A DNA stretch of 35,540 nucleotides, filler included, from an uncultured bacterium (lineage in GTDB: Bacteria; CAYJRR01): the NCBI GenBank assembly GCA_964372275.1. It is 11 parts of 11 records of this genome, joined end to end, with 100 filler letters (N's around TTAATTAATTAA, not from the genome) between each part and the next. Parts side by side here need not be neighbours in the genome. Positions count along the whole stretch, not along the records: positions 14,111 to 17,278 come from CAYJRR010000216.1; 10 more parts are not named here. One strand, given 5' to 3'. How positions within the stretch are numbered: the first letter of the stretch is position 1; every line of letters begins with the position of its first letter. A model generated the notes under the pieces. The model saw only the letters and a program-made list of their open reading frames with translations, searched no databases and had not been told where the DNA came from. The position numbers and the translations under genes are program-made. Of the stretch, positions 14,111 to 15,404 are shown piece after piece.

Positions 14111-15404
14111 AGGTGTCCGGGCCGAGCTCGAGCAGGCGGATCGCCTCGCTCCGGTCGAACCCCTTTTCGCGGATGCTCCGGGCGATCGTCGCCACCTTCG
14201 CCATGTCGACCGCGTTCAGGTTGTAGAAGGTCGTGCCGTCGATCGGGACGTCGCGGCGGCCGGCGACGACCAGCGTGGCGCCCATCGCCGTCGCGACGCC
14301 GTCGGCCTGCTCGGCGCCCGCCGGCGCGGGGAGGTAGGCGCGGACCTGCTGTTCGTCGGTGGGAGCGGAACCGTAGCTGCGGACGAGCGATTCGCGGACG
14401 GCGCTCGGTCGATAGAGGTTCGCGATCCCGCCGGCGCGATGCGCTTCGACCGCCAGGAGCGAGGCGGAAAGGGCGAGATCGCCGATGCGAAGGGCGCGCT
14501 CGCGGCCGCCGATCTCGTTCCATTGCGACGCGAGTCCGACCCCGCCGTCGGCGAGTGCGGCGGTACGGACGACCTGTGACGCGACCGCGACGCGGGCGGC
14601 GGCCTCGGTCGCCGCCATCGCGTTCGGGGCGCCGCTCGCCAGCGCGCCCGCGGCGTGGAACGCCGTTCCGAAGGAGGCGGCCCCGAGGGCGCTGGCGGTG
14701 AGGCCGAGCCACATCCCGCGGGCCTCGCGGCTGCGCAGCGGGTTCACCGTCTGGTCGTGGTTCACCCGGTCGCGGAGTCGCGCGAAGGAGCGGATGCCGC
14801 TCCAGGCGGTCACCGCCAATCCGGCGATGGGAACGATCGTTCCGCCGGTTCCGACGATCGCCGCGACCCCGACGCCGATGCCGGCCACCATCGCCACGCC
14901 GTCGACGACGCGTCCGGCCTTGGAGCGGAAGCGGGAGGCGGGCGTCGGAATCGTCTCGAGCGCCGGCTGGCAGAACGACCGGACGCGAGATGCGTTCTGC
15001 GGGAGCGTCACCGCGCCGCCCGGCAAGGTGTTCGAGGACCGCCAGTCGTCGAGATCCCGGTAGGCTCGGCCGTCGTGGTCGACGAAACGGATCGACCCGT
15101 CCTCGCCCTCGACGCGATAGAGGGGCGCGACGAACGGGCGGACGCGCGCGCCGGACGGCTGCACCCGCAGCGGGATCGTCACCACCGATCCGCCGGCCCC
15201 CTTCCATCGCGCGATCGTCGCCGCGGCCTCCGGACGCGGCGGACCGACGTTCGGCTCGCACTCGACGGCGCGTGCGAGCCGGATCGCGGGCAGCAGATCG
15301 CGCAGCGGTGACGCGGCCGTCTCCGGGCACTCGGCGGAGGCCACCGGGCCCGCGACGAGCGAGGCGATCAACGTCACGTGTCCGAGCGTTCGGGCGAGGT
15401 GCAC
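14111..15404 (-). CDS. Secreted DUF4781-like protein with a probable ParB/Srx-like domain starting at the truncated 3' end
   Basis: Signal ending VASA; PLYRV...RFVDHDGRAYRDLDDWRSSNTLPGG recalls DUF4781 (from memory); long Gly/Ala hydrophobic hairpin; ends KVATIARSIREKGFDRSEAIRLL. Confidence 0.65.

Follow-up and report, generated by a model that had tools for sequence, protein, structure and literature searches.

Results

Organization of the DUF4781 gene and its surroundings

The window, that is, the whole stretch of 35,540 nucleotides analysed here, is a string of small contigs with N spacers between them, taken from an assembly of 4.64 Mb in 225 contigs (70% GC, 94.6% complete). Contig C216 occupies window positions 14111-17278 and the N's that separate it from C215 (14011..14110) are artificial, non-genomic filler. 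At the left end of C216 lies a candidate toxin gene, a frame of 431 codons on the minus strand that runs from a GTG start at 15404 to 14112 (14112..15404), has a GC3 of 0.91 and is still open where the contig ends. Its neighbours are a CPBP/Rce1-like intramembrane protease gene on the same strand, 124 nt upstream (15529-16338, minus strand), an MsrB gene and, on the allele carried by contig C220, a convergent NAGPA gene. Proteases of the CPBP/Rce1 type can act in the processing of secreted peptides or in protection from them; no CPBP-type protease gene was seen beside the other DUF4781 paralogs of the genome that were examined. Contig C215 carries an 808-residue frame with a lipoprotein-like start (10805-13231, plus strand), of the isoamylase/pullulanase type by eye and unrelated to the DUF4781 gene.

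The encoded protein is a succession of distinct segments. Residues 1-24 (15333..15404, minus strand) form a predicted Sec signal peptide, judged by eye and by hydropathy, in which a hydrophobic core (11-residue mean 2.1) is followed by ASA; no lipobox was found by eye. The stretch behind it (14970..15329, minus strand) holds Cys26, Cys49 and Cys145, and comparison with the family rows places cysteines at like positions in most signal-bearing relatives, while 4 of the 145 other rows have a cysteine around position 145. Pfam returned DUF4781 (PF16013) alone for the 431 residues, with no ParB match; it covers residues 103-317 (14454..15098, minus strand; E 1.3e-31, 110.1 bits against a gathering threshold of 27.9), within a conserved trunk that is wider, about residues 60-350. 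The motif RFVDxxGRxYxxxxDWxxxNxLPxG (residues 106-130; 15015..15089, minus strand) belongs to a predicted beta-rich subdomain and is found in strict form in 29, and in loose form in 106, of 151 family proteins. A Gly-rich hydrophobic helical hairpin (residues 169-198; 14811..14900, minus strand), a candidate membrane-inserting element from hydropathy and modelling, has a 19-residue hydropathy peak of 2.23, and this measure reaches at least 1.6 in 147 of 151 trunks. Further on, composition and model agree on an Ala-rich helical stalk (residues 231-345; 14370..14714, minus strand; 26% Ala). An earlier, sequence-only reading had proposed the Sec signal, the DUF4781-like domain, the motif, the hydrophobic hairpin and the stalk, all of which are borne out here; the "short linker" that it placed before the tip already belongs to the tip module, which starts near residue 359 and whose first 73 residues (359-431; 14112..14330, minus strand) were recognized by alignment.

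An AlphaFold model of the trunk, computed from 42 sequences (pLDDT 87.5), comprises a beta-rich subdomain and long helices, together with a helical hairpin that is modelled less confidently. Foldseek gave no match to it at E <= 0.001, and comparison with solved structures yielded generic helical bundles at most (best Z 9.6, rmsd 3.1, 92 aligned), with the beta subdomain barely covered and no solved translocation domain matching the model.

The 3' end of the gene on a sister contig

The broken end of C216 (14111..14703) overlaps contig C220 (L001 1822-2414) with 569 of 593 nucleotides identical, the two copies differing at 24 positions. The C-terminus, thought to be lost at the contig break, can be followed on C220, which reads 116 residues past the overlap, through YLVLDGNHRFTAAQQLG, to a stop; the full gene would encode about 547 residues if it ends as the C220 allele does. 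Extension of the contig had been suggested as a way of finding a DGxHR motif, and DGNHR is indeed present on C220, 6 codons beyond the break (L001 1807-1793), where strand and motif together read YLVLDGNHRF. The next gene on C220 is convergent, belongs to the NAGPA family and lies 40 nt away, so that no immunity gene follows: the C220 allele has neither the immunity gene presumed lost at the break nor the small downstream gene sought by extension.

Read from the sequences, C220 is likely the same locus in a sister strain, because contig ends elsewhere in the assembly overlap with 92-95% of positions identical, C220 carries the one gyrA N-terminus of the genome, and contigs from sequencing runs cross the break. 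Four runs (X1-X4) from two studies were used, which may include the source sample. In X1, one contig corresponds to the window's 5' half and others to the C220 3' half, without differences; a contig of 390 nt from X4 (over L001 1524-1913) and another of 254 nt from X2 (over L001 1716-1967) bridge the break into the motif. The overlaps at 92-95% identity involve the contig pairs C160/C216, C10/C34, C172/C43 and C212/C32 and are the mark of a strain mosaic in the assembly.

At its other end, C220 carries an apparent FG-GAP-DUF4781 fusion, which we rejected as a misjoin: an 841-nt contig from X2 and a 272-nt contig from X3 track C220 precisely up to L001 2414 and fall entirely within the window allele, each contig being recognized in both comparisons by its run, length and depth. 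The FG-GAP repeat stretch (L001:2415-2944) is in frame with the DUF4781 gene, has no other copy in the assembly and would be annotated as a false fusion protein.

A ParB/Srx-like tip

Features of the tip past residue 431 were read from the C220 allele, not from the window allele. Pfam ParB_N matches the tip with 19.1 bits (E 0.0014), below the cut-off of 26.3; five ParB-fold NCBIfam models (ParB, SerK, SbnI, Noc and PRTRC ParB) match weakly, SerK chains are hit in the PDB at an E of about 0.8, and ParB_N clusters account for 21 of the 30 Atlas matches (best score 0.93). The GxxR phosphate-binding motif after a hydrophobic strand, by which ParB/Srx proteins are recognized, is present on the C220 allele and conserved in P0155, the one close relative found for the tip among 701 candidates. 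This protein of 218 residues, precomputed label PF02195, is 44% identical over 162 residues and has a cluster mate, P0156; its similarity extends to the final residues encoded by the window itself (E 2.7e-8), which sets the start of the module given above. The ParB/Srx-like tip claimed for this gene keeps the support of DGNHR on C220 and of the weak ParB models and fails at the Pfam ParB_N cut-off; a divergent ParB/Srx member is indicated. The single-sequence model of the tip had a pLDDT of 43.5, too low to be of use. Comparison of the tip with longer proteins gave 0 matches among 3978, and no other DUF4781 family member carrying this ParB-like tip was found. P0155 and P0156 are themselves stand-alone ParB-like proteins with a lipoprotein-like signal (LAGAC) and no trunk; an exported ParB fold is unusual.

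A constant trunk with variable tips

A phmmer search over 1.84 billion representatives produced 462 matches at E <= 0.001. All 150 that were examined, among them two paralogs of the same genome and a few animal proteins, pass the Pfam DUF4781 cut-off. The N-terminal parts of 141 proteins fall largely into one cluster (128), and the last 150 residues of 140 proteins into 80 clusters. Behind DUF4781, a toxin- or effector-type Pfam domain stands above cut-off in 47 of the 150, namely NS2 nuclease (17), WHH/colicin DNase (10), Fic (5), ADP-ribosyltransferases (4), deaminases (3), Gln amidase (2) and, once each, CdiA-type RNase, Ntox46, AvrB, HopA1, kinase and C39 peptidase. Weak toxin- or effector-type matches are found in seven more and metabolic enzymes in four, and about 90 are without a Pfam-recognized tip. 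Unlike tips sit on sister trunks in the pairs P0109/P0122 and P0110/P0118, and between L022 and L023 identity falls from 85% over the trunk to 22% over the last 130 residues. The family at large displays a conserved trunk with variable C-terminal toxin domains, the arrangement of polymorphic toxins, and the claim that DUF4781 is a trunk with variable toxin domains gains from these counts: when checked for variation, the C-termini of the homologs vary widely and are often toxin enzymes.

Several members have unusual contexts. The top Atlas clusters for DUF4781 are arthropod proteins, and the domain occurs in a mite and a sand fly (P0090, P0096). In P0142, an eCIS core domain (DUF4157), DUF4781 and adenosine deaminase follow one another, which combines the trunk with a contractile-injection marker, and P0035, P0058, P0119, L098 and L103 are apparent fusions of DUF4781 with an alpha-glucan enzyme, aminotransferase or flavin oxidoreductase domain. 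LysM or SH3_3 cell-wall-binding domains accompany DUF4781, without an immunity-like neighbour, in L112:15740-19999, L113:1588-6432 and L026-L028; two genes of this type stand in tandem, 14-19 kb from a SctV gene, in genome G241, and it is possible that such proteins are translocon-type members. Similarity to the trunk was not found in the tested neighbours within type III secretion clusters (LysM, DUF1521 and others). A word-based search with the whole protein gave 0 matches among 7997 candidates; as it also missed the paralog P0003, this result carries no weight.

Sec-type members and the paralogs of the same genome

Pfam finds DUF4781 six times in the genome, in the window gene and on contigs C35, C33, C34, C10 and C41, the copies on C34 and C10 being probably overlapping pieces of one gene. 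The tips of the C35 and C33 paralogs have no assigned family, C34/C10 shows HExxH by eye and C41 is tipless, which makes four different tips and one tipless form in this genome. An ADP-ribosyltransferase tip on the C33 paralog, suspected by eye, was discarded, as neither BLAST against P0111 nor Pfam supported it. Signal-like starts are present at all five visible starts of these genes. In the family, a clear signal-like start, as judged by eye and hydropathy for the window protein, was seen in six of 151 rows, and most other rows have 300-800 further residues and no signal. Six of the nine signal-bearing rows in the tree, the window protein included, group in a branch with 98% support, and C34/C10 groups with a long form; a single clade of all Sec-type forms has a p-AU of 0.55, compatible with one origin or several. 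Among other signal-bearing members are ones that carry a protein kinase, a papain-fold Gln amidase or, by eye, a HExxH domain.

The 3' end can be seen at five of this genome's loci, and none of them has an immunity-like gene: at four the next gene is convergent, and at the fifth it encodes an ECF sigma factor. GspD is above cut-off in the genome, and VipB had no match in it (94.6% complete). Injectisome SctV was not found either: the single FHIPEP gene scores 556.8 bits, below the hrcV cut-off of 692, and lies in a flagellar operon (FlhA). A single-protein locus scan of GTDB gave 0 of 321 and a metagenome locus scan with the signal-bearing alignment 0 of 599, so that neighbourhoods of Sec-type genes were seen in this genome alone. 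DUF4781 was found in 0 of 40 genomes sharing domain rank only with this one, a sample that carries no information on near kin.

Long forms beside type III secretion genes

A tighter alignment gave 42 loci, 19 from named genomes (16 Alphaproteobacteria, 3 Myxococcota-type) and 23 from metagenomes, in a scan biased towards kin of the rows chosen for it. Type III genes flank 14 of the 42, many of the other contigs being too short to tell; two of these 14 supplied queries and were identified by Pfam. The clusters contain SctV, Y4yQ-type SctD, a short secretin N-part, NolB and NolU, hrcV-family SctV is above cut-off in 16 of the 19 host genomes, and both plasmid matches are at Rhc-type clusters. 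The gene order in Bosea vestrisii A18/4-2, whose DUF4781 protein is WP_284173180.1, is sctV, a TPR gene, the DUF4781 gene and a small gene 2 nt behind it.

Co-occurrence was followed in even samples. Among 301 genomes of the order of Methylobacterium (Hyphomicrobiales), DUF4781 is present in 6 (5 above cut-off) and SctV, at E <= 1e-200, in 24 (21 above cut-off), and all 6 are among the 24; the hypergeometric p, without the centre genome, is 1.7e-6, a value that is overstated, kin not being independent. In 301 Myxococcota genomes, a tally that includes one unpublished genome (G552), the 12 with DUF4781 above cut-off are all among the 179 with SctV (p 0.003), and two weak DUF4781 matches lie outside the SctV genomes. 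With DUF4781 in only 12 of these genomes against SctV in 179, it is not the general effector of T3SS*. In linkage and in co-occurrence with injectisome genes, the long forms behave as type III substrates would; the window protein has a predicted Sec signal, and no injectisome SctV was found in its genome. Judging from sequence and gene neighbourhood, the long forms with a signal-less N-terminus are likely type III secretion substrates with a cognate immunity protein.

Immunity genes in the relatives

Of these 42 loci, 34 have a complete 3' end, after removal of seven open ends and one 120-aa fragment. The next gene was scanned in 27 of the 34, and seven are without a convincing small coupled gene. 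Immunity families above the Pfam cut-off follow in 12 of the 34 (Imm49 in 7, YezG-like in 3, SMI1/KNR4 in 2), and eight further downstream genes cluster together, weak YezG-like matches being seen for three of these. When 27 loci (26 of the scanned loci and L038) were partitioned by tip and by downstream gene, the same ten clusters, five of them singletons, were obtained; none of 20000 shuffles was as good, a result that is inflated by kinship. The clearest swap is L023, from Methylobacterium aquaticum DSM 16371, which has a WHH tip and an SMI1 gene and is nested among NS2/YezG-like trunks, with 85-87% identity in the trunk and 22% in the tip.

The pair formed by one NS2 nuclease tip and its downstream protein was modelled with a score of 0.88, against 0.00 for the best control, a mark reached by 116 of 157 solved pairs and 2 of 215 mismatched pairs; contacts agree by at least 86% and the partner pLDDT is at least 86. 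The model supports binding of the NS2 tip to the downstream protein, with a score that may reflect likeness to solved complexes. At the 16 myxobacterial loci, 11 downstream genes were scanned and none falls in a named immunity family, although an HD-domain gene stands behind a weak RelA-like tip. In the wider family a cognate immunity gene accompanies the tip at part of the loci, but not at the window locus, as read on the C220 allele, nor at the paralogs of the same genome.

Two further arrangements were observed. At L096:2571-5680, a weak RelA/SpoT-like tip is followed at -1 nt by an HD-domain gene, which resembles an alarmone synthetase toxin with a hydrolase antidote. One tip cluster without a Pfam match has Imm49 behind it in all 7 loci (L015-L016, L029, L031, L043, L045 and L053) and is a candidate nuclease family.

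Discussion

The DUF4781 trunk is very likely both a carrier of polymorphic effectors and a polymorphic-toxin trunk that has gone undescribed. Taken at the level of its sequence, the window gene appears to be a rare Sec-type member with a ParB/Srx-like tip, polymorphic-toxin-like and without the immunity gene that would make it a toxin-immunity pair. It is rather probable that the protein poisons cells other than its producer. After export by Sec, in which the Cys residues would suit an oxidising compartment, the protein would be released by a type II system (GspD is present) or in vesicles, its DUF4781 hairpin would insert into the membrane of the target cell and let the tip enter, and the ParB/Srx-like tip would bind and split a nucleotide inside the target; ATP is a tentative choice of substrate. 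Since unfolded export would spare the producer and the targets would be non-kin, no immunity gene would be needed. Several observations run counter to the toxin reading: this genome's visible 3' ends lack immunity-like genes, the tip is below the Pfam cut-off, its close relatives were found only as trunkless, lipoprotein-like ParB proteins, four of the 150 representatives bear metabolic enzymes and about 90 no tip that Pfam recognizes, the scanned myxobacterial downstream genes gave no named immunity family, and the trunk model matched no solved translocation domain.

The long forms linked to type III secretion may instead be aimed at eukaryotes (plants, fungi, protists), with the immunity genes guarding the producer from its own nuclease before export; this is compatible with the toxin explanation, and we regard it as possible, if somewhat doubtful. 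Injectisomes are established as eukaryote-directed in the accessible part of PMC3574062, the tips include the plant-effector families AvrB, HopA1 and AvrPphF as well as Fic and kinase, a HopBF1+DUF4781 protein is described from Burkholderia cenocepacia type III clusters in the portion available of PMC12580581, and 7 of the 34 complete loci have no small coupled gene. However, the Imm49, SMI1 and YezG cassettes swap together with the tip between close relatives, which is the pattern of kin competition, and the WHH and CdiA-type RNase tips, like the LysM domains of some members, fit bacterial targets.

It is unlikely that Sec-type proteins use the hairpin to hold an enzyme in the envelope or vesicles of the producer itself, where the ParB-like domain would handle extracytoplasmic nucleotides or phosphate donors for scavenging or signalling. 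Such a role would agree with the lack of an immunity gene at the loci of this genome, the tipless paralog, the exported, lipoprotein-like and trunkless nature of the nearest tip relatives (P0155, P0156), and the alpha-amylase, GlgE, aminotransferase or oxidoreductase domains of some members; yet the kinase, papain-fold Gln amidase and, by eye, HExxH tips of signal-bearing proteins fit action inside another cell, and the family at large behaves as toxin-immunity cassettes. Finally, that the ParB tip of C220 is another gene or an assembly artefact, with the window allele ending differently or being a relic, is very improbable: C220 is misjoined at its other end, the copies differ at 24 of 593 nt and none of the run contigs listed matched the window's 3' variant without differences, but the X4 and X2 contigs run across the break as far as the motif, P0155 is matched by the last residues of the window's own frame (E 2.7e-8), contig ends elsewhere, among them the other end of C216, overlap at 92-95%, and no gyrA N-terminus besides that on C220 exists in the genome.

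Returning to the toxin reading, we put forward, with some reserve, a scheme in which a self-translocating DUF4781 trunk makes Rhc-type (Alphaproteobacteria) and some myxobacterial type III systems antibacterial, with swappable tips and cognate immunity, and in which the window lineage would have grafted onto this trunk a Sec signal and ParB or other tips, without immunity genes. Beyond the first reading of the gene, the family linkage adds that most members have no Sec signal and are tied to type III secretion and immunity genes. The toxin-immunity cassettes attached to injectisome clusters are the most surprising part: they would mean antibacterial type III secretion, which at present is conceivable rather than probable. 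This link runs counter to the published statement, in the accessible part of PMC3482391, that type III secretion does not seem to be a route of classical polymorphic toxins, and no paper on an antibacterial type III system was found in the literature searched (titles and abstract starts). These results propose, for a widespread domain that had none assigned, a function open to testing. They suggest what Rhc-type clusters of unknown function may do in the cultured, non-pathogenic genera Methylobacterium, Bosea and Bradyrhizobium, the last with locus L020 of Bradyrhizobium murdochi WSM 1741, and they make candidate new toxin domains of the dozens of tip clusters that Pfam does not match. The Sec-type form would show the trunk working without an injectisome, which would make it a candidate stand-alone membrane-crossing module.

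DUF4781 had been said to have no established function, and PMC12580581, in its available portion, agrees in calling the domain uncharacterised while reporting the HopBF1+DUF4781 protein in B. cenocepacia type III clusters. In the main texts that were searched, DUF4781 did not turn up among the trafficking domains; a listing could sit in subscription journals or supplementary tables, which lay outside the search. Rhc-family clusters are treated as being of unknown function in the accessible part of PMC3574062, where HrpK-like translocators are mentioned and toxin-immunity pairs are not; such clusters host DUF4781 relatives, whereas the window protein has a Sec-type start in a genome with flagellar FlhA only. 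The T3SS* of Myxococcus xanthus, whose effectors are given as unknown and which serves prey lysis in the part available of PMC10433427, resembles what we propose for the DUF4781 family in tying bacteria-directed killing to a type III system. The same portion of PMC10433427 describes SitA lipoprotein toxins, which are like the DUF4781 family in having many toxins per genome, an escort domain and a variable tip, but differ from the window protein, in which no lipobox was seen by eye.

ToxB, according to the part available of 10.64898/2026.05.05.722872, is a ParB-fold CdiA tip and ATPase toxin with a GNHR phosphate motif (G105-R108). The window protein likewise has a predicted C-terminal ParB/Srx-like tip, with an identical GNHR motif on the C220 allele, a likeness compared at the motif only; the CdiA scaffold, VENN motif, CdiB and iToxB of the CdiA-ToxB system are absent here. 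That ParB domains are known polymorphic-toxin tips, as had been stated, agrees with the listing of Tox-ParB in the accessible text of PMC3482391, and the pool of tips shared between those systems and the DUF4781 family comprises ParB, WHH, NS2 nuclease, deaminase, ADP-ribosyltransferase, Fic and papain fold. The Imm49 and SUKH immunity proteins of polymorphic toxin systems are present in DUF4781 relatives, while the window copy is without an immunity gene. With the Sec/T2SS class of these systems, e.g., MafB, as far as PMC3482391 could be consulted, there is likeness in the signal peptide, the conserved trafficking region and the variable C-terminal toxins.
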